Of a stretch of DNA of 64,000 bases, positions 9,400 to 29,217 are shown piece after piece. How positions within the stretch are numbered: position 1 is the first letter of the stretch; each line of letters begins with the position of its first letter. The translations under genes and the position numbers were made by a program. Under the pieces are notes generated by a model, which saw nothing but the letters and a program-made list of their open reading frames with translations, was not told the DNA's origin and searched no databases. The DNA comes from Escherichia phage vB_EcoM-P3322, in sequence record PV191315.1; one strand, 5' to 3'.

Positions 9400-9494
9400 A
9401 TAAACTCTCCTCTTTATTTACCCGACGCGCCCCTGTTGGGCGGAAAGGGTTGTACGCAAAATTTTTAGCTCCAATCGTCGGGTGTCCCGACTCC

Positions 9495-9701
9495 TTACGC
9501 TTTTAATGTTTTAACAGAATGACAAGCTTTGCAAACCATAACCGGAACAAGTTCGTCTCCACTGTCCGCATAAATCACTGTTTTCTTCATTCTGCTACCA
9601 CATGAACAATACTCTGTATGATCCGCTGGAATATTAAATATTCCGTAATCACTTTCATACTGTTTCTTACATATGGACACTGCTTTTGTAAAACGAGACA
9701 T
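9495..9701 (-). CDS. hypothetical Cys-rich protein
   Basis: 68 aa with CSCG...CKAC pairs (zinc-ribbon-like). Confidence 0.45.
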   Translation of the reverse strand: MSRFTKAVSICKKQYESDYGIFNIPADHTEYCSCGSRMKKTVIYADSGDELVPVMVCKACHSVKTLKA

Positions 9702-14819: not shown

Positions 14820-16391
14820 CTCCTCTCATCGTTAGCCATCTTTCATGGCAATCATCAATCACCAACATCATACGATCAATCTCAGGGAATTACAATCGAA
14901 TTATCATAGGGGATTCCTATCAATTATCCCATATATACCGATTATTTTTGACACCCCACTCTTGTATAAAAAGTAACCCAAAATATCTACGGGGAGAGAT
15001 TATTTCGGGACACCCTGTTTCATGGCAATCATGGCAAGAATATCTAATAGAATCAATATCATATGGCAAAAATCATGACGCATACGTAAGAAGTGCTTAA
15101 CGCGAATTTTCGGGCCGTCAGGTCCACGCAGCGACAATTCCCAAATATCATGAGAATGAGAATAATTATCATTCGTATTCAATGACTTATGCAAGGCTCA
15201 TGCCAACATAGCGACAAGGTGGGCCACTTGATTATAAATCACACAAACACTTATTTATCAATAGGTTGGCAACTTCATCATATGACGGAACATTGTCAAC
15301 TGATCCCGCTCATGACAAGCAGACTATTATTTATATGAGAATGATTATTATTTAAACGTTTATTAACATAAAAATTAAAATAAATCAAGAATTTTCTGAT
15401 TTTATTTACGTTTAAGAGAAGATGCTCAACATCCTACCGGATCGCCGTTGGCAATCCTCGGATATTTACGCCCCCATGATTAAGGTTTATCTCTTTTCTT
15501 AGTGCTCAACATTCCCGCCCGTGGCGGTAACATTTCGCCCCCAAAATTATTGCTTTTTATTCTATTATGTGCATAGTGTGCAATGTATCGGAATGATGAT
15601 AATCATCCTCCCATTGCCCCCATAATTATTGCCATGCTAATGATTTCATCTTGTAATTACCACAATGATTATTGTTATTGCGCTAATGTTATGATCTTGG
15701 TAATTACATATAATGCTAATAATAAGCCAGCGCAATAAGTGTAAGCGTCATTACGCTTGCAATTATTGCAAGCTACGCAGTAACAAGAAATAACCATCAC
15801 CGATGGTTATGATTGTTGGGGTGTAGTTGGCTTATTATTAGCTCGCTATGTGTCCGGCATAGCGTGCTAATGATGATCCTGGGAATGATTCGTTTTGTAA
15901 TGATTTCATTCAGTCACTATTATGGCAATAGTTATTATTTTAATGGTTTCGTTTGTTATTGTTCGTTAGTTGGTTGTTTTGTCGTGTTATCGTTATCTTG
16001 CTTAGTATTCATCATGGTTTGATTGTTTGTCGTTATCAATCATCTTGCTATTATTCCTTTGATTATGATTAGTTTGCTTATTGTTTTAGGTTGTTGGTTA
16101 GTTAGTTGTTGCGAACTATTATCAACATTATAGTTATGCACTTATATTGCATAGATAAACATGGATAGATGATAATGGTTATCATTGAACTAGAAAAGAG
16201 GTAAAAGGGTGTTTTTGATGGTTTGTTGTTGGTTGTTGATCGATTTTAACCGCTATAAATGGCTCTCTAACAGCCTGTTACCCTGGGAGGTATGGTTATT
16301 CGTTTAATGGTTGATTAGCTCGATACCGCGATTTATTCAATTTTGTTCTGTGTCGGTTTTTCATAGGCGAAAGCTATCAACATTGTTCGGG
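14820..16391. other. 1.6-kb non-coding AT-rich region with GATAAT/ATCATT palindromes and short repeats
   Basis: No credible ORF; palindromes GATGATAATCATC (~15596) and TGATAATGGTTATCA (~16166), AAGCGTCATTACGCTT, GCAATTATTGC; recurring GCTAATGAT and GAGAATGA motifs. Confidence 0.5.
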
Positions 16392-18979: not shown

Positions 18980-19007
18980 TTTACTTTCCTCATTATCGGC
19001 GGCACCA

Positions 19008-19064
19008 TTGCCGCCCTACGTGGTAAATATTAGCACACTGGCGATCTGTGTCAATACTTTTTAT
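19008..19064 (-). promoter_or_regulatory. promoter + 5' GC-hairpin module
   Basis: rc: TTGACA, 17-nt spacer, TAATAT, CACGTAGGGCGGCAATGGTGCCGCC. Confidence 0.55.
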
Positions 19065-19447
19065 TCAATATAAATCAAATTATCTTCACCAATGTAAGCC
19101 GACACGTTCGGCATAAACTTAGCTGCATTGGTTAGGCGGTTGGCTGTGTTAGTGGTGTATATTTCAGGGCGATCCCAAAAGCCTACGCCGTGACCGTTAC
19201 GGGTAAAATGTAAATCATTCCCGATCTGGTTGGCTGTTGCGCCGTCGCTCATTGCCTCAGAGATAGCGGCAAGATTAGCATTAATAAAGGCTGTTACATC
19301 CTGGGCGATCCGTTGATCTGCGCTAGGAGAAAAATCATAATCGTCTAAGTTATCAATAAAATTACCTTCATGATCCCTTGCTGATTCAGCAAAAATAAAG
19401 GCTTCTTTATAGCCGTTGATGATTTCAATAATGATTTCTGTTTTCAT
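19061..19447 (-). CDS. hypothetical protein
   Basis: 128-aa ORF. Confidence 0.55.
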   Translation of the reverse strand: MKTEIIIEIINGYKEAFIFAESARDHEGNFIDNLDDYDFSPSADQRIAQDVTAFINANLAAISEAMSDGATANQIGNDLHFTRNGHGVGFWDRPEIYTTNTANRLTNAAKFMPNVSAYIGEDNLIYIE

Positions 19448-19668
19448 GCTGTACGCTCGACAATAATAATAGTTTGCGGGATCTCGTTTTCTACTACTAA
19501 CAAGGCTTTTTTCTGTGTGATAGATATTTTAACACGTTGTAAAGTAGCGGTAAAATCTTTCATTTCATTATGCGCGGATTTAGTACAATGCCAGATCTCA
19601 GGCTTACCAACTTGTAAGCCGCGTAAAAATTCCGTTTTGCCTGTTTTGTTCGTGATCATTTGTTTCAC
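19444..19668 (-). CDS. hypothetical protein
   Basis: 74-aa ORF. Confidence 0.5.
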   Translation of the reverse strand: MKQMITNKTGKTEFLRGLQVGKPEIWHCTKSAHNEMKDFTATLQRVKISITQKKALLVVENEIPQTIIIVERTA

Positions 19669-19669
19669 C

Positions 19670-19774
19670 TTAACCGATACCGTGGGAAGATAGGATCATA
19701 TTAGCCATAGTTGCAACTACTCCAACCGATAACGCCAGGCCAACCACTGCAACCGTGAAAATTTTCTCTAACAT
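19670..19774 (-). CDS. small hydrophobic peptide
   Basis: 34-aa ORF (MLEKIFTVAVVGLALSVGVV...) directly downstream of a module; track ORF extended through the promoter. Confidence 0.3.
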   Translation of the reverse strand: MLEKIFTVAVVGLALSVGVVATMANMILSSHGIG

Positions 19775-19793
19775 GATTCTACCCTCATTAATG

Positions 19794-19854
19794 GGCGTTG
19801 CACCATTGCCCCGCCCTACGTAATACACTTTACTAGATAACAAATTATTGTCAA
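19794..19854 (-). promoter_or_regulatory. promoter + 5' GC-hairpin module
   Basis: rc: TTGACA (19849-19854), -10, TACGTAGGGCGGGGCAATGGTGCAACGCCC. Confidence 0.5.
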
Positions 19855-19995
19855 GCTTTATTTTACTTCCCAAACGGAAAATTCGCTGCCTGTTGGGATC
19901 ATTTTTTTAATCTTGTTTGCTGCCGCTACCAGGTCAACGGCTTGTACTGTAATAATATAACCAATTGTCGAGGCTGTTGCGTTGAAAGTTTTCAT
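19816..19995 (-). CDS. hypothetical small protein
   Basis: 59-aa ORF (MKTFNATASTIGY...), AAGGG RBS; 3' end overlaps downstream module. Confidence 0.35.
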
Positions 19996-20014
19996 TATAT
20001 TGCCCTTTAATACA

Positions 20015-20037
20015 GGCGGGATTAATCCCGCCTTTTT
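20015..20037 (+). terminator. terminator-like hairpin (plus-strand orientation)
   Basis: GGCGGGATTAATCCCGCC followed by TTTTTG on plus strand, inside minus-strand block. Confidence 0.4.
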
Positions 20038-20039
20038 GA

Positions 20040-20210
20040 TTACTCTTCATTATCGCCGTTATAGTATTCAATGCCGTTTTCATCGGTTACGGTGATGTTA
20101 ACGCCACCGATAGCAACACGATCACGGGCAAACGTCATAGCTTCATTTAAATCTTCAGACCAAAAAATATTGTGACCTTTGCGCGATACATAAAACATAG
20201 TCGGGATCAT
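20040..20210 (-). CDS. hypothetical small protein
   Basis: Start at internal ATG (rc 20208-20210, MIPTMFYVSRKG); longer track ORF would run through the upstream module. Confidence 0.45.
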   Translation of the reverse strand: MIPTMFYVSRKGHNIFWSEDLNEAMTFARDRVAIGGVNITVTDENGIEYYNGDNEE

Positions 20211-20232
20211 GATTTGTTTCTCTTCTGTTATG

Positions 20233-20293
20233 AGCGGTGGACCATTCCGCCGCCCTATGTGGTAAACTTTACTACGTTGTTTGCCTGCTGTCA
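20233..20293 (-). promoter_or_regulatory. promoter + 5' GC-hairpin module
   Basis: rc: TTGACA (20288-20293), -10, CACATAGGGCGGCGGAATGGTCCACCGC. Confidence 0.5.
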
Positions 20294-20295
20294 AA

Positions 20296-20580
20296 CTATT
20301 TTTTAATGTTTTGCCCTACAAAATCGATCACTTCCTTAAGCTGTCTCTCTGTCATGATCGTACCTGGTAACTCTTCTTTAATTTCTTCCGGTAAATAGAT
20401 ATTACCGCGCCAGGTTAACAAACAACCGTTTTGATCTTCGCAGATAGAATAAGAAAACATCCACTCGCAATCATTTTCAAGCTCCCAAAAACACAAAAAG
20501 TCTTCTTTCCCTAAGTTTTCAACGGTTAAACATAATCCGCGACGTGCTGCATAATTAGTTAGGCTTTTTGTGATTTTCAT
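20296..20580 (-). CDS. hypothetical protein
   Basis: Start at internal ATG (rc 20578-20580, MKITKSLTNY). Confidence 0.5.
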   Translation of the reverse strand: MKITKSLTNYAARRGLCLTVENLGKEDFLCFWELENDCEWMFSYSICEDQNGCLLTWRGNIYLPEEIKEELPGTIMTERQLKEVIDFVGQNIKK

Positions 20581-20599
20581 GATTTTTCTCTCTTCTTGT

Positions 20600-20657
20600 G
20601 AGCGGCACCATTGCCGCCCTACAAGATACATATTACCAGATTAAGCGGACTTGTCAA
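20600..20657 (-). promoter_or_regulatory. promoter + 5' GC-hairpin module
   Basis: rc: TTGACA (20652-20657), TAATAT, TTGTAGGGCGGCAATGGTGCCGCTC. Confidence 0.55.
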
Positions 20658-20658
20658 A

Positions 20659-20769
20659 CTATTTTTTCTTTTTCTTTGCTTTCAATCGTCTAAGGTTACG
20701 GCTGGACTTATTGCGCAAGGCGCTTAGATCGTCGTACCCTTTCCATGCTTGCATATCTTTCGGATTCAT
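20659..20769 (-). CDS. small basic protein
   Basis: 36-aa ORF (MNPKDMQAWKGY...KAKKKKK) with AAGGGGA RBS. Confidence 0.35.
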   Translation of the reverse strand: MNPKDMQAWKGYDDLSALRNKSSRNLRRLKAKKKKK

Positions 20770-20778
20770 GTTATCCCC

Positions 20779-20940
20779 TTACTTGTTAGCCGGATCATAT
20801 ACCAGGACCGCGCCGCTTGCTTTCACGCTTTCCGCTTCATAGTTGCGCAGATCGTTTTCTGTAAGATTGAGCGCGATCACTTCCTCGATCTCAACGCCAG
20901 CGGCAAGGGCGATCTCTTTGATAATATCTGTTGTTTTCAT
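20779..20940 (-). CDS. hypothetical small protein
   Basis: Start at internal ATG (rc 20938-20940, MKTTDIIKEI). Confidence 0.4.
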   Translation of the reverse strand: MKTTDIIKEIALAAGVEIEEVIALNLTENDLRNYEAESVKASGAVLVYDPANK

Positions 20941-20950
20941 GGTGTGCACC

Positions 20951-21070
20951 TTATAAGATGATTGATAAGATAGTGACAACGAAAGCGATTATACTGATGG
21001 CAAATGTCATCTTTTTACCTTCGGATACTGCCGGATTTTCTACCGTGTATTCTACTGTGTACTTGCTCAT
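20951..21070 (-). CDS. small membrane peptide
   Basis: 39-aa ORF with C-terminal TM segment FAISIIAFVVTILSIIL. Confidence 0.35.
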   Translation of the reverse strand: MSKYTVEYTVENPAVSEGKKMTFAISIIAFVVTILSIIL

Positions 21071-21093
21071 CGTGTAATCCTCTCGTTTGCTTT

Positions 21094-21150
21094 GGGAACT
21101 ATTCCCGCCGCCCTATGAATTAAATATACACTATCTCAAAATGATTGCAA
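21094..21150 (-). promoter_or_regulatory. promoter + 5' GC-hairpin module (TTGCAA -35 variant)
   Basis: rc: TTGCAA, -10, TTCATAGGGCGGCGGGAATAGTTCCC. Confidence 0.5.
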
Positions 21151-21168
21151 GCCTTTTTCTAAATTATT

Positions 21169-21453
21169 TTATTCAGTAAACAAACCATCATTTACAACGG
21201 CGGCGATGATCTCCCGTGCCATTGATTCAGGGAAAGGGGCGCTATAGTCCTGGCTTGTCTCATCGGTATCGGTGATCCAATGATAAGCTAACGAGTAAAA
21301 GCCTTTACTAACTGTTTTCAGTGAGATGATGATCACTCGGTCAAGCTTATTGGTGAATGTTGCCGTTAATGTGTTACCCTCCTGCGTCATGTTGGACAAG
21401 TAAGCGAGATCATTAATCAGGGAAAACATTAGCACGGTGTTAGCTTTACTCAT
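21169..21453 (-). CDS. hypothetical protein
   Basis: Start at internal ATG (rc 21451-21453, MSKANTVLMF) with GAGGA RBS. Confidence 0.5.
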   Translation of the reverse strand: MSKANTVLMFSLINDLAYLSNMTQEGNTLTATFTNKLDRVIIISLKTVSKGFYSLAYHWITDTDETSQDYSAPFPESMAREIIAAVVNDGLFTE

Positions 21454-21471
21454 GATTGCATCCTCAAAGGG

Positions 21472-21530
21472 GCGCGGCACCATTGCCGCCCTACACGATA
21501 ACTATAACACAATGTAAAACAGGGTCAACC
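21472..21530 (-). promoter_or_regulatory. promoter + 5' GC-hairpin module
   Basis: rc: TTGACC, TATAGT, TATCGTGTAGGGCGGCAATGGTGCCGCGCC. Confidence 0.5.
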
Positions 21531-21731
21531 TTTATTTTTCCACGGTGTCAGCTTGTTAATCATTGGTGATAAATAGCGTTTACCAACGTAAAACAGTACG
21601 CCAACTGATGCAACGGCGGCGACCTCATGCATAGCCGACGGGAAACGGGTATCATAATAAGATCCAATAATAGCAATAGCGGCAACGGCTGCAACGTCGA
21701 TAATGATTTTCTCTTGTTTTGCGGTGATCAT
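21525..21731 (-). CDS. small membrane protein
   Basis: 68 aa with two hydrophobic segments. Confidence 0.5.
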   Translation of the reverse strand: MITAKQEKIIIDVAAVAAIAIIGSYYDTRFPSAMHEVAAVASVGVLFYVGKRYLSPMINKLTPWKNKG

Positions 21732-21752
21732 AGTATTTACCTTTTTGTATGG

Positions 21753-21810
21753 TGGGGAACTATTCCCCGCCTGATGTAATACAGTTTAACAGGTCCGGTT
21801 ATGGTGTCAA
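21753..21810 (-). promoter_or_regulatory. promoter + 5' GC-hairpin module
   Basis: rc: TTGACA (21805-21810), -10, ACATCAGGCGGGGAATAGTTCCCCACC. Confidence 0.5.
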
Positions 21811-21816
21811 CCACTT

Positions 21817-22002
21817 TTAAAGATATTTTATGCTAATGACGTTTTCAGGTTTTACCTTGTTATAATGTGCATCAACATAGATCAAACCATCGTCAGAAAA
21901 GCCCAGGATCACGCCCTGCGCGATAAAACCGTACTCGTCACGGTAACGCACGGCTATTTTTAATGTTGCGTTGTAGGCTGTTTTAAGCTCGTTTAAAGTC
22001 AT
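21817..22002 (-). CDS. hypothetical protein
   Basis: 61-aa ORF. Confidence 0.45.
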   Translation of the reverse strand: MTLNELKTAYNATLKIAVRYRDEYGFIAQGVILGFSDDGLIYVDAHYNKVKPENVISIKYL

Positions 22003-22021
22003 TTTTGTTTATCCTCTACAT

Positions 22022-22051
22022 GTAAAAAGAAAGGGCGCTTGATGCGCCCTT
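22022..22051 (-). terminator. intrinsic terminator
   Basis: AAGGGCGCATCAAGCGCCCTT hairpin followed on minus strand by TTCTTTTTAC. Confidence 0.6.
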
Positions 22052-22057
22052 GTTATG

Positions 22058-22204
22058 TTAATCCTCTAAATCCATCCAATTATATTTGTCACTCTTCCCG
22101 CGCTTTGTTTTATTACGCTTGTCACCTTTGCGGATCACTTCCTCGTTCCAGGCCTTGCGGATCTTGGAAGATTGAATTTTTTCTGCGCGATTAGATGTAT
22201 TCAT
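22058..22204 (-). CDS. small basic protein
   Basis: 48-aa ORF (MNTSNRAEKIQSSKIRK...) between module and terminator. Confidence 0.4.
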   Translation of the reverse strand: MNTSNRAEKIQSSKIRKAWNEEVIRKGDKRNKTKRGKSDKYNWMDLED

Positions 22205-22221
22205 TTTGTTTCCTCTTTATA

Positions 22222-22277
22222 TGAGCGGCACCATTGCCGCTATATTGTTAATTTAAACTGTTTTGTAAAATTGTCAA
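22222..22277 (-). promoter_or_regulatory. promoter + 5' GC-hairpin module
   Basis: rc: TTGACA (22272-22277), spacer, -10, TAGCGGCAATGGTGCCGCTC. Confidence 0.5.
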
Positions 22278-22283
22278 GGTTTA

Positions 22284-22637
22284 TCATTCATAAGAGCAAG
22301 CAAGGATCACGCCTGCAATATAAAGCCAATAATTTTCCCTTTCTCGTTGGATTTTATCATCGCTGCTATTCTCTTTAATGTATCCCCAGGATGTTAACAA
22401 GCGATCAATTTCCCAATATTCGAAAGCTATATTAATATCTGATGGCAAACCTTGTAACCATGATGCAAGTGCTTTAACAATACTATAATTAAAACGTGAT
22501 TGATTATCAGGGTACCAGTACTCGGAATTAAAACGGCGCATCAATTCCGCGATCTTCTCTTTTTCGGTTGTAATACCGTAATCATTAAAATCGATAGCGG
22601 CAAGGATGTACTCTTTAATTGCATTTTGTGCTTTCAT
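22284..22637 (-). CDS. hypothetical protein
   Basis: 117-aa ORF. Confidence 0.5.
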   Translation of the reverse strand: MKAQNAIKEYILAAIDFNDYGITTEKEKIAELMRRFNSEYWYPDNQSRFNYSIVKALASWLQGLPSDINIAFEYWEIDRLLTSWGYIKENSSDDKIQRERENYWLYIAGVILACSYE

Positions 22638-22654
22638 GGTCTTTCTCTCTTTTT

Positions 22655-22712
22655 AGCGGGAACTATTCCCGCCCTACGTGTAACAGTTTACTGAAAATTA
22701 AATCCGTGTCAA
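22655..22712 (-). promoter_or_regulatory. promoter + 5' GC-hairpin module
   Basis: rc: TTGACA (22707-22712), -10, CACGTAGGGCGGGAATAGTTCCCGCT. Confidence 0.55.
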
Positions 22713-22715
22713 GCT

Positions 22716-22937
22716 TTATTTTGTTACTACCATTTGGTACCCTGTTTCAATGTTAGTAAATACTGTTATCCCGTCCTGGCGTTCACTCATTAGCATACAA
22801 GGCGCTAACATCCTTTCTACTGCCTTGCACTCATTGTAAACGGCGGTTATGTCTCCTGCGGCCTTGTCTTCTGTGGTGAATGTATCGTTTATGTAAACTT
22901 GACTAGCGACAACGGCGACAATAGCGAAAGTGATCAT
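22716..22937 (-). CDS. hypothetical protein with hydrophobic N-terminus
   Basis: 73 aa; MITFAIVAVVASQVY signal/anchor-like start. Confidence 0.5.
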   Translation of the reverse strand: MITFAIVAVVASQVYINDTFTTEDKAAGDITAVYNECKAVERMLAPCMLMSERQDGITVFTNIETGYQMVVTK

Positions 22938-23010
22938 GATATTTTTCTCTTTATGTGTTTCTATTAGTTGATATTACAGCAATTCGCAGATTATTTTTTA
23001 GCAATTCGTG

Positions 23011-23229
23011 CTATTTACTCATAACAGTATCGAAAACAAATTTTTCTTTGTTGTCAAAGCTCACGTATCCGATTCTACCACGCAAGCCGCAAGTAGTGCC
23101 GTATTCGTAACCGTCAAGACCTTTAACCTTCCAATCCACGCCCATTAAAACCGCATTATATTTCTGACCAACTACAAACGCGCCACCAGTTGATTCAATG
23201 CAAACAACTTTAATTTTACGGATTGCCAT
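23011..23229 (-). CDS. hypothetical protein
   Basis: 72-aa ORF. Confidence 0.5.
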   Translation of the reverse strand: MAIRKIKVVCIESTGGAFVVGQKYNAVLMGVDWKVKGLDGYEYGTTCGLRGRIGYVSFDNKEKFVFDTVMSK

Positions 23230-23265
23230 TTTCTTTCTCTCTTTCTGGTGATTGGTTTCTCTTCT

Positions 23266-23305
23266 CTATAGCGCCCATTGTAAGGCGCTATAACGAAAAG
23301 TCAAC
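23266..23305 (-). promoter_or_regulatory. promoter with palindrome spanning the -10
   Basis: rc: GTTGAC -35, 16-nt spacer, TACAAT; 9-bp arms TATAGCGCC...GGCGCTATA (23266-23291) flank the -10. Confidence 0.45.
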
Positions 23306-23307
23306 GA

Positions 23308-23475
23308 TTATTTTTTAAGGCTTAAAGTACCTAACTTGTCAGCATGACGCAGACCAGGGAATATCCATTTGCCTGACTCATCTTTCACCGGGGCTTTAAG
23401 CGTAGCGCCCAGGTTGGCGGCGTTAACTTTACGTGCAACGTTGCGAGCGGCTTCACGGGTAGCGAAAGTGATCAT
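23308..23475 (-). CDS. hypothetical small protein
   Basis: 55-aa ORF (MITFATREAARNVARKV...). Confidence 0.4.
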   Translation of the reverse strand: MITFATREAARNVARKVNAANLGATLKAPVKDESGKWIFPGLRHADKLGTLSLKK

Positions 23476-23499
23476 GGTGTTTTCCTCTTCTCTTTGTTA

Positions 23500-23561
23500 G
23501 GCGGTGGACCATTCCGCCGCCTTGATGTAATACAGTTTACTTTATTTTATTAAGATTGCAA
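23500..23561 (-). promoter_or_regulatory. promoter + 5' GC-hairpin module (TTGCAA variant)
   Basis: rc: TTGCAA, -10, CATCAAGGCGGCGGAATGGTCCACCGCC. Confidence 0.5.
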
Positions 23562-23567
23562 GCGGTT

Positions 23568-23783
23568 TTATGAAATAATTGTCAAAGTAAAATCATAAGA
23601 CTGATTTAATTTATATTGTACTTTATTGCCGTAGTAGTCACCTTTACGTAAAGATCCGCGAATACCTATCACATCCTTTACATCTTTAAGATTTTTTACG
23701 CCTGTAATGTCTTTATTGAAATACTCGTCATCTGAAAATAAAACTTGACTTGCATTTTTTAACAGTGTACGGATATTAGCCAT
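23568..23783 (-). CDS. hypothetical protein
   Basis: 71-aa ORF. Confidence 0.45.
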   Translation of the reverse strand: MANIRTLLKNASQVLFSDDEYFNKDITGVKNLKDVKDVIGIRGSLRKGDYYGNKVQYKLNQSYDFTLTIIS

Positions 23784-23806
23784 CGTGATAATCTCTCTTC
23801 TGTTGT

Positions 23807-23864
23807 GAGCGGCACTATTGCCGCCCTACGTAATACAGTTTACTCTTTTTCTTTCCGGTGTCAA
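23807..23864 (-). promoter_or_regulatory. promoter + 5' GC-hairpin module
   Basis: rc: TTGACA (23859-23864), -10, TACGTAGGGCGGCAATAGTGCCGCTC. Confidence 0.55.
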
Positions 23865-23873
23865 CAATCTTTT

Positions 23874-24101
23874 TCAGATTAATTCATCCAGGCATAACAG
23901 GCGATCAACGTTGAGATCGGTTAGGCTGATGGTTGGCACCTGGTAGGATTCGATGTACTCGACGCTTGCATATTCCCCAAAATTAGCAACAGCCCACTTA
24001 TTCAAGATCTCACATACATCATTAATCTTTTTGTTTGTTACAACTGCAATGACCTGGGAAGTGCCAACGGTGCCGGATACGCGAACAATATTGATAGCCA
24101 T
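23874..24101 (-). CDS. hypothetical protein
   Basis: 75-aa ORF. Confidence 0.45.
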   Translation of the reverse strand: MAINIVRVSGTVGTSQVIAVVTNKKINDVCEILNKWAVANFGEYASVEYIESYQVPTISLTDLNVDRLLCLDELI

Positions 24102-24122
24102 AATCTTTAATCTCTCTGTTTT

Positions 24123-24182
24123 GGCGGGAAACCACTTCCCGCCCTATGTGATACATCTTACACTAATTTTAAACGTTGTCAA
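24123..24182 (-). promoter_or_regulatory. promoter + 5' GC-hairpin module
   Basis: rc: TTGACA (24177-24182), TAAGAT-type -10, CACATAGGGCGGGAAGTGGTTTCCCGCC. Confidence 0.55.
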
Positions 24183-24191
24183 CTGTTTTTA

Positions 24192-24431
24192 TTACATTCC
24201 AACCATCGCGGCACGGATCGCAGTAGTGCTATATTTGAAACCGTCTGGCGTTTTATCTTGTCCAGTTTGTTCCAGAAAAAGCATCATATCCCGCGCCGCA
24301 TCATTACGATTAGCATTAGCGTTAATAAAATCTTGGGCCAACCGGTATAACGATTCATCGTTATTAATCCAAAGGCTTACATTCCAATGAGTTTTGTTTT
24401 TGTGACCGTTGTACATTTTAGATTTAGCCAT
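24192..24431 (-). CDS. hypothetical protein
   Basis: 79-aa ORF. Confidence 0.45.
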   Translation of the reverse strand: MAKSKMYNGHKNKTHWNVSLWINNDESLYRLAQDFINANANRNDAARDMMLFLEQTGQDKTPDGFKYSTTAIRAAMVGM

Positions 24432-24465
24432 GATTTTTCTCTCTTTTTCAGTGAGGCGGGAAGTG

Positions 24466-24514
24466 TTCCCGCTCTCTATGTAATACAGTTTACTCTTTTT
24501 ATTCGTGCTGTCAA
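24466..24514 (-). promoter_or_regulatory. promoter + 5' GC-hairpin module
   Basis: rc: TTGACA (24509-24514), -10, CATAGAGAGCGGGAACACTTCCCGCC. Confidence 0.5.
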
Positions 24515-24520
24515 TGCTTT

Positions 24521-24886
24521 TTATAAATCTTTTTTACGTTTTACATCGCTCGCATGACTGTATACAGTGATCCCATTGTCACGGCAAAAACGGGAAAGAT
24601 ACGCGCCGCGTGAAAACTCTTTACCTTCCATATTAATAACCTTGCTAAATTCTTCTAGGGCAACGGTATCAAAATGATCCCCATAGCCATATTGAAACGG
24701 AACGTTAACTACTTCGATCAGTTTACCGCCGATCTCAACATCAACCATCAAAGAGAAATAAGTATTACCATAAGACTTTTGAAACCAGCGACGGGCGCTA
24801 ATATGTACCGCTTCAATGCTGGATAGTTCAATTTTAGCAGTGTTAGCCAGGGTAGCATAAGCAGAAACATTGATATTTTTAGCCAT
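24521..24886 (-). CDS. hypothetical protein
   Basis: 121-aa ORF; degenerate module upstream (24890-24975). Confidence 0.5.
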   Translation of the reverse strand: MAKNINVSAYATLANTAKIELSSIEAVHISARRWFQKSYGNTYFSLMVDVEIGGKLIEVVNVPFQYGYGDHFDTVALEEFSKVINMEGKEFSRGAYLSRFCRDNGITVYSHASDVKRKKDL

Positions 24887-24981
24887 AGTCTTTAATCTCT
24901 TTTGATTAGTTAGGAGTATTCCCGATAAAAGTTATTATGCTTATACTATCACTCATTGTCAATAGTATAAGACTAAAACTT

Positions 24982-25161
24982 TTAACGATAATCGTTATAG
25001 GCTTTATTGACCTGGCGAATGTAACATTCGAAAGCAAGATCAATGTATTCGTATTCACGCACATAATCACCATAGGTCACTACATACATTTTTAAAGTTT
25101 CCTCATAAGCCAGGAGGATCGAATCTAAACCTATAATCTCAGTTTTTGCAATGATAGCCAT
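24982..25161 (-). CDS. hypothetical small protein
   Basis: 59-aa ORF (MAIIAKTEIIGLD...). Confidence 0.4.
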   Translation of the reverse strand: MAIIAKTEIIGLDSILLAYEETLKMYVVTYGDYVREYEYIDLAFECYIRQVNKAYNDYR

Positions 25162-25181
25162 GATGTTAACCTTTTATTGTT

Positions 25182-25238
25182 GGCGGCACCATTGCCGCCC
25201 TACGTGATAAACTATACCAGAATTTTAAACAGTGTCAA
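25182..25238 (-). promoter_or_regulatory. promoter + 5' GC-hairpin module
   Basis: rc: TTGACA (25233-25238), 16-nt spacer, TATAGT, CACGTAGGGCGGCAATGGTGCCGCC. Confidence 0.6.
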
Positions 25239-25244
25239 CCGTTT

Positions 25245-25607
25245 TTATTCGTAAATTTTACCGCTTTCGGCCCATACCATAACGCGGCGCATACTATCCC
25301 AAGTGTTTTGATCCAAGTTTAAGCCGTGCAACTCTTCGGTACTTCCCAGACCAGGTACCGCTTTGTTGTAAGTTGCATATAAGCGCCCTTGATACTCATA
25401 CGCCAGAGTAAGATCCGTTTGAATCATCTTTTTAAGCATAGCATTAAGCATCATATTAGCGGCATGTTGATCACGTTTTAGCGGTAACATATCAATAAGG
25501 GCGCGATAAGCTGAAACATGAATATCAACCGTTTCACGTGGTAAATTTTTCATATCATCACGGAAAGATACCAGATTAAACATGATAGTATTGATTTGCT
25601 TGCTCAT
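25245..25607 (-). CDS. hypothetical protein
   Basis: 120-aa ORF. Confidence 0.5.
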   Translation of the reverse strand: MSKQINTIMFNLVSFRDDMKNLPRETVDIHVSAYRALIDMLPLKRDQHAANMMLNAMLKKMIQTDLTLAYEYQGRLYATYNKAVPGLGSTEELHGLNLDQNTWDSMRRVMVWAESGKIYE

Positions 25608-25628
25608 TGTGTTACCCTTTTTTGTTTT

Positions 25629-25689
25629 GGCGGGGAAGTATTCCGCCGCCCTATGTGATACATCTTACCAGATTAAAAAACGTTGTCAA
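25629..25689 (-). promoter_or_regulatory. promoter + 5' GC-hairpin module
   Basis: rc: TTGACA (25684-25689), 16-nt spacer, TAAGAT (25662-25667), CACATAGGGCGGCGGAATACTTCCCCGCC. Confidence 0.6.
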
Positions 25690-25698
25690 GAATATTTT

Positions 25699-25794
25699 TT
25701 AGAAAATAATAACCGCTACTACAACCCAAAATGGAACGGCTAGAATGATAGCGTTAATCGTTCCAACCGTCAAGCTATTTTCTTTATTAATCAT
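25699..25794 (-). CDS. small membrane peptide
   Basis: 31-aa ORF (MINKENSLTVGTINAIILAVPFWVVVAVIIF). Confidence 0.3.
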   Translation of the reverse strand: MINKENSLTVGTINAIILAVPFWVVVAVIIF

Positions 25795-25822
25795 TGTAAG
25801 CCTCTTGCATAATTTCACTATT

Positions 25823-25880
25823 AGCGGCACCATTGCCGCCCTACGTGGTAAATATTATGCCAGTGGCGGCGATATGTCAA
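25823..25880 (-). promoter_or_regulatory. promoter + 5' GC-hairpin module
   Basis: rc: TTGACA (25875-25880), 17-nt spacer, TAATAT, CACGTAGGGCGGCAATGGTGCCGC. Confidence 0.6.
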
Positions 25881-27132: not shown

Positions 27133-27330
27133 TTATTCTATCCCTGCAATTTGATTAACGCGCTTGCATTTTGTAGCGTGCTGGTCTTCTGTAATGACTC
27201 CCATTTCTAACAGGGAATCAATGAAAGATAAAACCGTTTCATGATCATCCTGGGGATGACTGAACTCAGTAAAACCGTTTACTATTACGTTGATTTGTCC
27301 AGCTTTCGCCACAATATGCAATGTTGCCAT
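27133..27330 (-). CDS. hypothetical protein
   Basis: 65-aa ORF; unusually long GC-rich 5' leader. Confidence 0.45.
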   Translation of the reverse strand: MATLHIVAKAGQINVIVNGFTEFSHPQDDHETVLSFIDSLLEMGVITEDQHATKCKRVNQIAGIE

Positions 27331-27603
27331 GATCTTAACTCCAGGTGATGAATGATGTTTTTTGTTGGTGGACGGTGGATTATGGAGATCCTCACCTTTG
27401 CCCGTCCTGCATTGCGCCCTCCTGTTGTTTATTGTCGTTGTGCCGCGCCCCCCTCGACAAGATGAATACTACGCTACCAGGCGAGGAACGTCAACCACTT
27501 TTTCAATCTTTTTTATTTTCTTTTTGCTTGCTATATATAAAGGAAAGGGCTATCATCTTTCTACCGCGCCAACCAGGGCGCACAACAAAGAAAGGGCGAC
27601 ACC

Positions 27604-27870
27604 ATGACAAATACTACATTACACCTTATGCACTCATTGGGCTGGCAAGGCGGCACGGTGCACCAGGTAGCAAGCGCAACGGGCTTAAAGGTTGAAACAG
27701 TTCTCAACCTGGGCGATCATAAGGTGGAAGAGATAGACCATTTTGATCCGTTCGCTGATGGTTATTTATGGGCTTGCAGTGGCGGCGGGGAAAGCAAGAT
27801 CCCACCAGGGGCGCGGGGCGATATGCATTTTTGGTTAGGTGTCCTTTCCTGGCAAGAAAACAAAAAATAA
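27604..27870 (+). CDS. hypothetical protein in GC-rich island (uncertain)
   Basis: 88-aa plus-strand ORF with AAGGG RBS and upstream TTGCTA-N17-TATCAT; GC content clearly above surroundings. Confidence 0.3.
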   Translation: MTNTTLHLMHSLGWQGGTVHQVASATGLKVETVLNLGDHKVEEIDHFDPFADGYLWACSGGGESKIPPGARGDMHFWLGVLSWQENKK

Positions 27871-27872
27871 TC

Positions 27873-27901
27873 TTGACAAGCCCAGGGATCGGGCTTATAC
27901 T
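27873..27901 (+). promoter_or_regulatory. strong sigma70-like promoter with operator-like palindrome in spacer
   Basis: TTGACA (27873-27878), 17-nt spacer AGCCCAGGGATCGGGCT, TATACT (27896-27901); GC-rich structured sequence follows, no convincing ORF. Confidence 0.5.
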
Positions 27902-28130
27902 GTTTTACATACAGAAGAGGAAGCGCCACCCCACGGCGTAAAGGCGGGGCTAACATACCAGGGCGCTGGTTGGAAGGTTGATCGCCGGTAGGCTGGGCGC
28001 TATATATTTGTAAAGAAATGTAAAGATAAAATAATCGCTTGCTTTCCTGGCTGGATCTGTTATTCTTATTACATGGCGAGGGGACACGGGAGCGCGAGAC
28101 AAACACCGCCCCTGCGCGTCATTCTCTAAA

Positions 28131-28202
28131 TGAGAATGATTATCATTTACCTTATCAAATAAGAATCAATCTCATTTATAAACCTAAATGCGAATCATTA
28201 TC
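28131..28202. promoter_or_regulatory. pair of Fur-box-like sites
   Basis: GAGAATGATTATCATTTAC and GCGAATCATTATCATTTGC match about 14-15 of 19 positions of GATAATGATAATCATTATC. Confidence 0.35.
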
Positions 28203-28253
28203 ATTTGCATTTCCATATGAGAACTCTTCTCATTCCCATCTGCATAAATTTTT

Positions 28254-28434
28254 GTAAACTTTAAATTTTGCTTTTGTACTTTCATTTTTGTAAAAGCAAA
28301 AAAACTTTAAATACTGTGGGCGCGCAAAATTTTTAAAATTTTCCTTGACTTTTGAGTTTTGTTTTGTATCTAACATTTTAAGATAATTTTCCTAAACTTT
28401 AAATTTTGGTTTTCAACTTTCACTTTTGTAAATT
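28254..28434. repeat. degenerate tandem direct repeat (~138-bp period), iteron-like
   Basis: TAAACTTTAAATTTTGCTTTTGTACTTTCATTTTTGTAAAAGC (28254-28296) vs TAAACTTTAAATTTTGGTTTTCAACTTTCACTTTTGTAAATTC (28392-28434); ATTTGAGATAAC repeated twice nearby. Confidence 0.6.
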
Positions 28435-28674
28435 CTTAAAAAGTTTAAATAATTTGAGGAATTTTTGAGATAACAAGTAGGGGTAATTTGAGATAACCTT
28501 TAATCTTATTGGCAGACCTTCAGGAACCCACCTAGATCGAATCCTAATGATGCAAACTGAAAAAGATAAGTGTTTGTATAGGACAAAATAATAGGCTCTC
28601 TACAGTGTTGTAGGAGCCTTATTTCTGTGCTACAAAGTGACACCTTTGTTCTAAAAATGAAAAAAGTTAAAATA

Positions 28675-29217
28675 TCACAAATATCGTCTTTGCGGTATTT
28701 TGTCTGGGAAAAGTATTTCGATCAGTTTGTTATGATATTTGCCTAAAAGATTCTGCCCTTTCCAGGTGGCAGGGTTTAGCACCCCTGGTTCATACATCCC
28801 CATTCCAATTCCGTAAACCTTATCGTAGGGGCTTGCTTCAACAAACGTTTTGTATTGGTAAAGGTGTAAGTCTGCATACAAATCTGGATTCTGTACATAT
28901 TTCAAGCATAAACCTCGCATAACAATACGCTCACGGTTCTCTTCCCATACGTTGTTATCAAAATCCGACACTGCCCTACCCATACGTTTGTAATAAGCTT
29001 GGATCTTCTCATCTTTCCGTATCAAACTATGAGTCAGAATAGCCTGTGCAGTGTTGTGGTCATTAAAAAGCAAAGCTTTACGCCACATCATGTATTGTTC
29101 GACACAATTAAATGTCTGATTGTAACCTGGTTCGGTTTCTGTAAAGGGTGCAATATACCAATTACTAAAAACATCTTTATGTGAAAAGAAGAATACATAT
29201 TCGTCAGTTATTCTCAT
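28675..29217 (-). CDS. NADAR-domain protein (YbiA-like, DUF1768)
   Basis: FSNWY...P, EQYMMWRKALLF, ILTHS, MGRAV, NVWEENRERIVMRGLCLKYVQNPDL, GIGMG...GQNLLGKYHNKLIE follow the NADAR motif order. Confidence 0.75.
   Translation of the reverse strand: MRITDEYVFFFSHKDVFSNWYIAPFTETEPGYNQTFNCVEQYMMWRKALLFNDHNTAQAILTHSLIRKDEKIQAYYKRMGRAVSDFDNNVWEENRERIVMRGLCLKYVQNPDLYADLHLYQYKTFVEASPYDKVYGIGMGMYEPGVLNPATWKGQNLLGKYHNKLIEILFPDKIPQRRYL

Follow-up and report, generated by a model that had tools for sequence, protein, structure and literature searches.

The locus and its array of palindromes

The DNA analysed here is a stretch of 64 000 nucleotides (the window) from Escherichia phage vB_EcoM-P3322 (sequence record PV191315.1), a phAPEC8-like myovirus (Phapecoctavirus, Stephanstirmvirinae). 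At 27.3–28.7 kb it carries a gene-poor gap of 1.3 kb, in which lies an array of four regularly phased palindromes resembling the operators of the host regulator Fur. The gap has a leftward early promoter at its left edge and a terminator at its right edge (table 1), and the minus strand is the coding strand of the genes flanking the array and across 1–35 kb. The segment 27300–28700 is 94–98% identical to many Phapecoctavirus genomes, without consistent depositor annotation among the matching records.

Four 19-bp palindromes with the consensus AATGAGAATnATTCTCATT occupy positions 28129–28234, each starting exactly 29 bp after the one before. A preliminary description of this DNA had noticed two Fur-box-like sites at 28131–28202; the sites are real palindromes, but there are four of them, in exact 29-bp phasing. 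It had also seen a kinship with motifs near 15.15 and 15.33 kb, and the same palindrome is indeed present at 15155 and 15334, in the other large non-coding region of the window. A first palindrome pattern, with an NNN spacer, had the wrong geometry and gave no relevant match.

Table 1. Features of the gap carrying the palindrome array and of the region of the genome ends. Positions are those of the window.
Feature	Position	Strand	Remarks
Fur-type box 1, AATGAGAATGATTATCATT, 7-1-7 palindrome	28129–28147		35.4 bits; 16/19 to the classical Fur 19-mer
Fur-type box 2, AATAAGAATCAATCTCATT	28158–28176		28.4 bits; starts 29 bp past box 1
Fur-type box 3, AATGCGAATCATTATCATT, plus an overlapping secondary site at 28193 (6-bp shift)	28187–28205		32.7 and 18.4 bits; starts 29 bp past box 2
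Fur-type box 4, TATGAGAACTCTTCTCATT, weakest of the four	28216–28234		20.7 bits; starts 29 bp past box 3
AT-rich repeat block, 138-bp duplication and iterons	28247–28456	+	
TTTGAGATAAC, two exact copies, at 28464 and 28487	28464–28497	+	
Intrinsic terminator that ends the upstream minus-strand operon and may be bidirectional; right module edge	28594–28620 (approximate)	−	phAPEC8 annotation, coordinates transferred
Leftward early promoter, TTGACG-17-TAGTAT; left module edge and start of the early-gene block	27466–27494	−	promoter scan and phAPEC8 annotation
ORF88, the only plus-strand open reading frame (ORF) hereabouts, 88 aa	27604–27870	+	PHROG 19316; ends at the P1 −35 element
P1, TTGACA-17-TATACT, strong, sigma-70 type	27873–27901	+	11/12 consensus matches; kept in six genera
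Conserved GC-rich non-coding segment 3′ of P1	27907–27995	+	six-genus alignment
TGTAAAGA, two copies 10 bp apart, just 5′ of P2	28009–28026	+	kept in 5/6 genera
Putative P2, TTGCTT-16-TATTCT, followed by an ACAT start context	28039–28066	+	position conserved; below promoter-scan threshold
GC-rich leader from P2 to box 1, ending in CATTCTC	28070–28124	+	terminator-like hairpin listed at 28118–28140
Direct terminal repeat (DTR), physical genome ends	15098–15426	.	homology to the 329-bp Schickermooser DTR
Fur-type box in the DTR, AATGAGAATAATTATCATT, about 57 bp from one DTR edge	15155–15173		29.5 bits; 1 mismatch
Fur-type box in the DTR, TATGAGAATGATTATTATT, about 75 bp from the other DTR edge	15334–15352		27.9 bits; 3 mismatches
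Weaker Fur-type box, GATGATAATGGTTATCATT, in the non-coding region holding the DTR	16168–16186		19.9 bits; 15/19 to the classical consensus

The pattern AATGAGAATNATTCTCATT, which has the geometry of AATGAGAATnATTCTCATT, finds six matches with at most three mismatches in the 64 kb, compared with 0.06 expected, and none of 100 shuffled sequences reaches six. With the same tolerance, the classical Fur 19-mer GATAATGATAATCATTATC matches the window only at 15152 and 28132 (0.05 expected). Matches of at least 12 bits to a matrix of phage boxes (see below) are confined, across the 64 kb, to the two large non-coding regions. The setting is rich in A and T, and a short repeat in two copies, such as TTTGAGATAAC, is not significant by itself, so that one may ask whether the boxes are a functionless chance product of low-complexity DNA. 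The excess of matches, the exact phasing and the conservation of the motif through sequence turnover in many genera leave this explanation practically no probability; the motif excess, the matrix matches across phages and a shuffled-matrix control effectively refute it.

The left half of box 1 and the sequence CATTCTC just 5′ of the box make up an inverted repeat of 9 bp (28118–28140), and ATTCT is kept at the CATTCTC position in all six genera that were aligned (see below). CATTCTC could be an additional half-site or part of a hairpin that ends a short transcript from P2.

Equivalence to the Fur operators of Escherichia coli

A 23-nt matrix was constructed from 22 phage boxes only (from this window, two T5-like phages and Certrevirus CR3) and applied to four 50-kb pieces of the E. 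coli K-12 genome (200 kb), picked for their known Fur-regulated genes. The top matches lie in the promoter regions of fecI, fecA, fhuA, fepA–fes, fepB–entC, cirA and fepD–entS. Seven of the 10 best non-overlapping matches fall within the 1460 bp made up by these seven Fur operator intergenic regions. Among 300 column-shuffled palindromic matrices, 265 gave no more than one operator match and none gave more than four, a control that gauges specificity and not genome-wide performance. High scores are also found beyond the Fur operators recognized here, at K-12 positions 189579 (map–rpsB intergenic region, L011 39580; 17.3 bits) and 2233859 (yeiS–preT, L013 13860; 13.6 bits).

The phage boxes agree with the classical consensus at 14–16 of 19 positions and the seven E. 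coli operators at 12–16, which places the phage boxes within the range of proven operators. Secondary sites displaced by 6 bp are present at 15161, at 28193 and in most relatives, a hexamer periodicity as found in Fur sites, and the commonest box spacing in the loci from the IMG/VR collection is also 6. Clusters of Fur sites are known to consist of overlapping sites shifted by 6 bp (PMC2189734).

By sequence, the four palindromes therefore belong to the class of Fur operators represented in E. coli by fecI, fhuA, fepA–fes, entC–fepB and cirA (iucA-type 19-bp box, or 7-1-7 motif TGATAATnATTATCA), overlaps shifted by 6 bp included. They differ from these operators in number and arrangement: there are four boxes (2–10 in relatives) in a regular 29-bp register and no single cluster over a promoter, and the phage that carries them, in ORF-less DNA and in its terminal repeat, is virulent. 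The preliminary description had suggested a single factor that binds both large non-coding regions, and the occurrence of the same palindrome in both agrees with this. The common factor is most probably host Fur, because a matrix made only from phage boxes leads back to the E. coli Fur operators.

Distribution of the arrays among phages

A sensitive BLAST search with the segment 28100–28520 returned look-alikes of the box array, and little else, from the non-coding DNA of many virulent enterobacterial phages. The carriers belong to Phapecoctavirus, Justusliebigvirus, Vequintavirus, Certrevirus, Mydovirus and the T5-like Demerecviridae. A matrix scan of the retrieved loci found 2–10 boxes per array, with a spacing mostly of 29 or 29 ± 6 bp; within the genus Phapecoctavirus, the copy number is 4, 6 or 7. 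Individual boxes diverge and copy number changes, yet the palindrome and the register of 29 or 29 ± 6 bp persist. Box positions carry about 1.5 bits each and the spacers are poorly conserved, a difference that is partly circular since the boxes were selected with the matrix. The array motif is thus common to many phage lineages, which the preliminary description had not included.

A scan of IMG/VR for perfect boxes found arrays also in contigs unrelated to the reference loci, and no comparable arrays were found in the plasmid and E. coli genome collections. Three Fur-type boxes with a spacing of 30–37 bp are present in each of the IMG/VR contigs L089 (1810–1888), L050 (2688–2780), L135 (2118–2222), L027 and L073. 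In L089, three identical 30-bp units lie directly 5′ of a consensus promoter, TTGACA-17-TATAAT.

The palindromes could also be the target of a protein encoded by the phage or carried in its virion, with the resemblance to Fur boxes being coincidence or mimicry. The phage consensus (TGAGAAT or TGCGAAT with AAA/TTT flanks) is more uniform than the host operators, the boxes close to the genome ends could serve the terminase or end-binding proteins, and the DNA examined amounts to 64 kb of a genome of about 150 kb. We nevertheless consider such a binder quite improbable: the same box is used by families for which no shared early proteins were detectable here and by unrelated metagenomic contigs, the matrix recovers the host operators with high specificity, and overlapping sites shifted by 6 bp are a hallmark of Fur. 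Because families without detectable shared early proteins use the same palindrome, and this palindrome is that of the Fur operator, host Fur would be the most economical binder.

Promoters and anatomy of the module

The 300 nt situated 5′ of the first box were aligned for six genera, represented by this phage, phiWec190, Justusliebigvirus PD06, Certrevirus CR3, Vequintavirus naswa and Mydovirus Ro1. The order of elements is conserved: promoter P1, a GC-rich stretch, two copies of TGTAAAGA, the position of promoter P2, a GC-rich leader and the box array. Both promoters are directed rightward, against all flanking genes, into DNA without a conserved ORF. P2 is weak in this phage and nearer to consensus in CR3 and Ro1; about 60 bp separate its −10 element from the start of the array downstream. 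The start context ACAT(A/G)G is common to P1, P2 and the annotated early promoters. The GC-rich stretch 3′ of P1 is regarded as non-coding because indels of 1–2 nt separate the relatives.

The spacer of P1 contains a GC-rich inverted repeat, AAGCCCagggatcGGGCTT (27878–27896). Its sequence varies by genus, and a GC-rich palindrome is retained in the equivalents at loci L005, L015 and L016; it could be an operator for a lineage-specific regulator.

Another element, the conserved 5′ hairpin motif ACGTAGGGCGGCAATGGTGCCGC, is found just past the −10 elements of early promoters in five copies on the minus strand (18996–25846) and corresponds to a PHIRE promoter in the phAPEC8 annotation. All of its copies in the 64 kb fall in the block that the genome end and the Fur array delimit.

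ORF88, which ends at P1, has no match in Pfam or PDB and no informative homologue, and its single-sequence AlphaFold model (predicted local distance difference test score, pLDDT, 40) is uninterpretable. A helix-turn-helix suspected by eye in its product is unsupported, as Pfam, PDB and AlphaFold gave nothing usable. ORF88 is kept in Phapecoctavirus and Justusliebigvirus, where it co-occurs with the iterons AAACTTTAAAT described below, and is absent from CR3. The minus-strand ORF at 27762–28106, a hypothetical protein in phAPEC8 (gp257), is probably spurious: it has indels of 1–2 nt among relatives and overlaps the conserved GC-rich stretch.

The neighbours of the array encode a NADAR protein, an endonuclease, an AAA ATPase and small proteins without assigned function. 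The NADAR-domain protein (28675–29217, minus strand; Pfam E = 8e-36) is named GTP cyclohydrolase II in some records. Rfam gave nothing credible, either at the gathering threshold for the whole window or at an E-value threshold for 27300–28700, and the tRNA scan of the window found none.

The genome ends

The sequence record of the related phage Schickermooser has an exact repeat of 329 bp at both ends, which maps to 15098–15426 of the window at 96% identity. The position of the DTR in the window is transferred from this one record; the paper on Schickermooser gives the terminal repeat as 328 bp (PMC6563267). The 15-kb region is thus the DTR, i.e. the genome ends, and no second origin. Fur-type boxes lie near both of its edges, and the least stable 100 bp of the window (15323–15422) are at one DTR edge, beside the box at 15334. 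On this basis, the right physical end lies about 13 kb away from the four-box array, a distance of about 8.6% of the genome. Two records that start near the array (ETEC-TG and phi1_175008) were discarded as evidence on the ends, since they are circular and their starts arbitrary.

The non-coding DNA at 15500–16200 is rich in the words ATGAT, ATCAT and ATTAT; AATGATGATAATCATCCTC at 15592, for example, shares 15 of 19 positions with the Fur consensus. Further Fur-like sites of low affinity may be present in this segment.

The AT-rich repeat block: a candidate origin

Immediately to the right of the array, the preliminary description had noticed a degenerate tandem duplication of about 138 bp in AT-rich DNA. 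Both parts of this observation hold. The duplication arms (28247–28318 and 28385–28456) share 82% identity over 72 nt, and at a lag of 138 the self-identity (0.593) exceeds that of all 500 shuffles (maximum 0.55). Tandem Repeats Finder reported nothing for the duplication because it has only about 1.5 degenerate copies. The segment 28256–28455 is the AT-richest 200 bp of the 64-kb window (79%). The duplication contains four copies of the 11-mer iteron AAACTTTAAAT, at 28256, 28302, 28394 and 28440 (spacings 46, 92 and 46 bp).

The iteron AAAAACTTTAAATA is invariant in phiWec190 and PD06, i.e. within the Stephanstirmvirinae, and quite different direct repeats are found in the same place in CR3 and T5. 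An iteron scan of IMG/VR gave 10 loci only, too few for an analysis of conservation. The two copies of TTTGAGATAAC noted earlier near 28462–28496 were found as exact copies. Taken alone, two copies of this 11-mer are not significant in the window; its GAGATAA part is retained in relatives and is present near the iterons of CR3. A promoter-like TTGACT, also mentioned in the preliminary description, does exist at 28345 but is not conserved in phiWec190 or Justusliebigvirus PD06.

Tandem promoters aimed at AT-rich repeats recall known replication origins. The primary origin of T7 has the tandem promoters 1.1A and 1.1B followed by an AT-rich segment, and T4 has R-loop origins. The phage locus may be likened to these in that two tandem promoters point into its most AT-rich ORF-less DNA; it differs from them in that the promoters are of the host sigma-70 type, that a Fur array is interposed and that the origin is a candidate only. 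Iteron origins (lambda ori; the plasmids P1, F and pSC101) similarly have direct repeats beside an AT-rich segment, lineage-specific as here. The locus has four such repeats, the copies of AAACTTTAAAT in the AT-richest 200 bp; unlike iteron origins, it has an iteron spacing of 46 bp, no DnaA boxes and no adjacent initiator gene that could be identified.

It is possible, although we hold this only tentatively, that the block is a replication origin, at which transcription from P1 and P2 would open the AT-rich iterons and a phage protein would bind AAACTTTAAAT, with Fur as an architectural or regulatory accessory. The promoters directed into ORF-less DNA against the direction of the genes, the AT-richness of the block and the maintenance of the iterons within the subfamily, with other iterons replacing them in CR3 and T5, are consistent with this. 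Moreover, no origin is known for rV5, where skew analysis could not place one (PMC3606486). Several results argue against it. There is no match to the DnaA box TTWTNCACA between 27.3 and 28.7 kb, the neighbouring genes show no Rep- or initiator-like domains, the iterons are spaced by 46 bp and not by about 22 bp, and no helical phasing of A-tracts, or curvature, was found at the locus. GC skew in the window merely follows the direction of transcription. The homologous array of T5 is away from the T5 origins, which are mapped near the genome centre (Davison, bioRxiv 10.1101/866236), and the 15-kb region, being the DTR, does not provide a second origin. The word TTWTNCACA is depleted in the window as a whole (four occurrences, compared with 10.9 expected; 99 of 100 shuffles have at least four). 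The origin is compatible with the explanation that we favour (see below) and not exclusive of it.

Comparison with the injection-stop region of T5

In T5 (AY587007, L018), boxes are found at 9473, 9508, 9531, 9577 and 9612; the segment 9473–9634 scores 18–35 bits, with a spacing listed as 29/23/46/29. These boxes coincide with the annotated direct repeat C (DRC/DRE) copies 1–4 and the palindromes E–I of Repeat Region 3, the injection-stop signal, and lie between DnaA boxes and the 7.9% nick. The calculated shear point of first-step transfer is 9618, and the function of the T5 repeats has been called impossible to guess (Davison, bioRxiv 10.1101/866236). A paper of 2026 presents the region only as repeats, palindromes and DnaA boxes, and a search of open-access papers and bioRxiv found no mention of Fur at the T5 injection-stop repeats.

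The array described here is a palindrome array of the same DRC/palE–I type, with the same boxes and 29/23-bp spacing. As in T5, it is in a large conserved non-coding region about 8–9% in from a genome end, preceded by a block of early genes transcribed by the host and followed by lineage-specific direct repeats. The differences are also clear. The T5 array is inside a 10-kb terminal repeat, beside paired DnaA boxes and a nick site. The present phage has no paired DnaA boxes (IRD′/IRC′) by its array, which is outside a terminal repeat of only 329 bp and has two promoters upstream; no homologues of the T5 pre-early genes A1, A2 and dmp were found in the 64-kb window.

The array might mark a boundary, or act as a checkpoint, for the entry of DNA, on the model of the T5 injection stop. 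It would stand at the inner edge of a terminal block whose entry and expression come first, where host proteins already present (Fur, and DnaA in T5) would act before phage proteins are made. The parallel in layout is striking: the T5 boxes are DRC/palE–I at 9473–9634, beside the shear point, the present array is about 13 kb from the right genome end, the hairpin motif of early promoters is confined to the stretch from that end to the array, and the order of end, early genes, Fur array and lineage-specific repeats is the same in both phages. A weak hint comes from daunorubicin, to which Demerecviridae and Vequintavirinae are both sensitive and which blocks the T5-like Bas33 (Tequintavirus) after first-step transfer (PMC13250531). 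The lack of A1, A2 or dmp homologues in the window and a terminal repeat that is short and excludes the array speak against this reading; in addition, rV5-like and phAPEC8-like phages are not reported to inject their DNA stepwise, and it is hard to explain how a cytoplasmic protein would halt the entry of DNA. We regard an entry checkpoint as unlikely, a low-probability possibility of high value.

In its general form, which we hold to be equally unlikely, the analogy would make the phased Fur-box arrays a landmark that a host factor recognizes and that unrelated large virulent enterobacterial phages have in common, among them T5-like siphoviruses and rV5-, phAPEC8- and phi92-like myoviruses. 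The landmark would be placed in the terminal repeats and where the segment that is first both to enter and to be expressed has its inner edge. Host Fur, and with it the iron status of the cell, would then take part in the T5 injection stop or early transition, and phAPEC8-like phages would have an analogous staged entry or expression.

A proposed cis-acting array of Fur sites

The explanation that we favour, and consider fairly probable, is that the four palindromes are operator-grade sites for host Fur placed at 29-bp intervals, which would act in cis within a conserved non-coding control module, possibly an origin. A single Fur site has a footprint of about 30 bp. With such a footprint, the 29-bp register would allow gap-free tiling, and in iron-replete cells an unbroken nucleoprotein block of about 110 bp would result from the binding of Fur–Fe2+ dimers. 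The module consists, in order, of the leftward early promoter, the rightward P1 and P2, the Fur array, the lineage-specific AT-rich iterons and the terminator, with the same boxes marking both ends of the 329-bp terminal repeat. In this position, the array may be an iron-dependent roadblock or landmark, deciding whether transcription from P1 and P2, or other traffic on the DNA, passes from the terminal early block into the AT-rich iterons, the best candidate for a transcription-activated origin.

The boxes could alternatively be a decoy. Replicating phage DNA, with at least seven strong boxes per genome, would titrate Fur and thereby de-repress host iron uptake for the benefit of iron-dependent phage enzymes such as ribonucleotide reductase. 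The phage boxes equal or surpass the host operators, the arrays are specific to phages (none in the plasmid or E. coli genome collections), and titration of Fur by multicopy boxes is the principle of the Fur titration assay (cited in PMC2189734). As in Fur titration constructs, or datA in the case of DnaA, a cluster of sites for one host regulator is untied to a regulated gene. On the other hand, the same array is present in T5, whose pre-early genes control the breakdown of host DNA and a shut-off of host expression that takes only minutes (Davison, bioRxiv 10.1101/866236, among other sources); de-repression of the host would be pointless there because host DNA is degraded early. Strict phasing and a fixed placement by promoters, iterons and genome ends are unnecessary for a decoy and, unlike titration loci, argue for a role in cis. 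We consider a decoy improbable. The cis role is favoured over a pure decoy because the array keeps a fixed position, with the rightward promoters on one side and the lineage-specific iterons on the other, bordering the terminal early block, and because boxes are also present in the terminal repeat.

Several points weigh against a cis-acting Fur array. The whole link to Fur, binding to the boxes included, is drawn from sequence comparison. The half-site of the phage boxes is usually TGAGAAT or TGCGAAT and not the canonical TGATAAT, although both variants are present in the real operators fecI, fhuA and entC. The boxes overlap the −35 or −10 element of no conserved promoter, unlike the usual geometry of Fur repression. 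A search of open-access papers and bioRxiv found no mention of Fur sites in T5-like, Vequintavirinae or phAPEC8-like phages, and the search for a phage-encoded binder was confined to the window. No structured RNA is supported upstream of the array: the predicted fold of the P1 transcript has no covariation among relatives, and that of the P2 leader has weak covariation (4 of 16 pairs) and a poor energy. Finally, fur is not among the T5 host factors in one resistance screen (PMC7553319), from which it follows that the array is probably not essential.

Significance

Fur boxes are the textbook operators of bacterial iron genes and also occur in the Shiga-toxin genes of temperate phages. Among the cargo of temperate phages, they are known from the sit operon (PMC6969025). 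With a regularly phased, operator-grade array in an ORF-less control region and in their terminal repeat, virulent phages would put this host regulator to a different use. The array recurs in several phage families that are unrelated, and it suggests that its carriers monitor the iron state of the host, or that they borrow Fur as an architectural protein. The finding also provides a concrete candidate factor for the conserved injection-stop repeats of T5, described from 2020 to 2026 only as repeats, palindromes and DnaA boxes. As phAPEC8-, rV5- and T5-like phages are common candidates for phage therapy, a dependence on iron or Fur could affect their efficacy in iron-limited host tissues.

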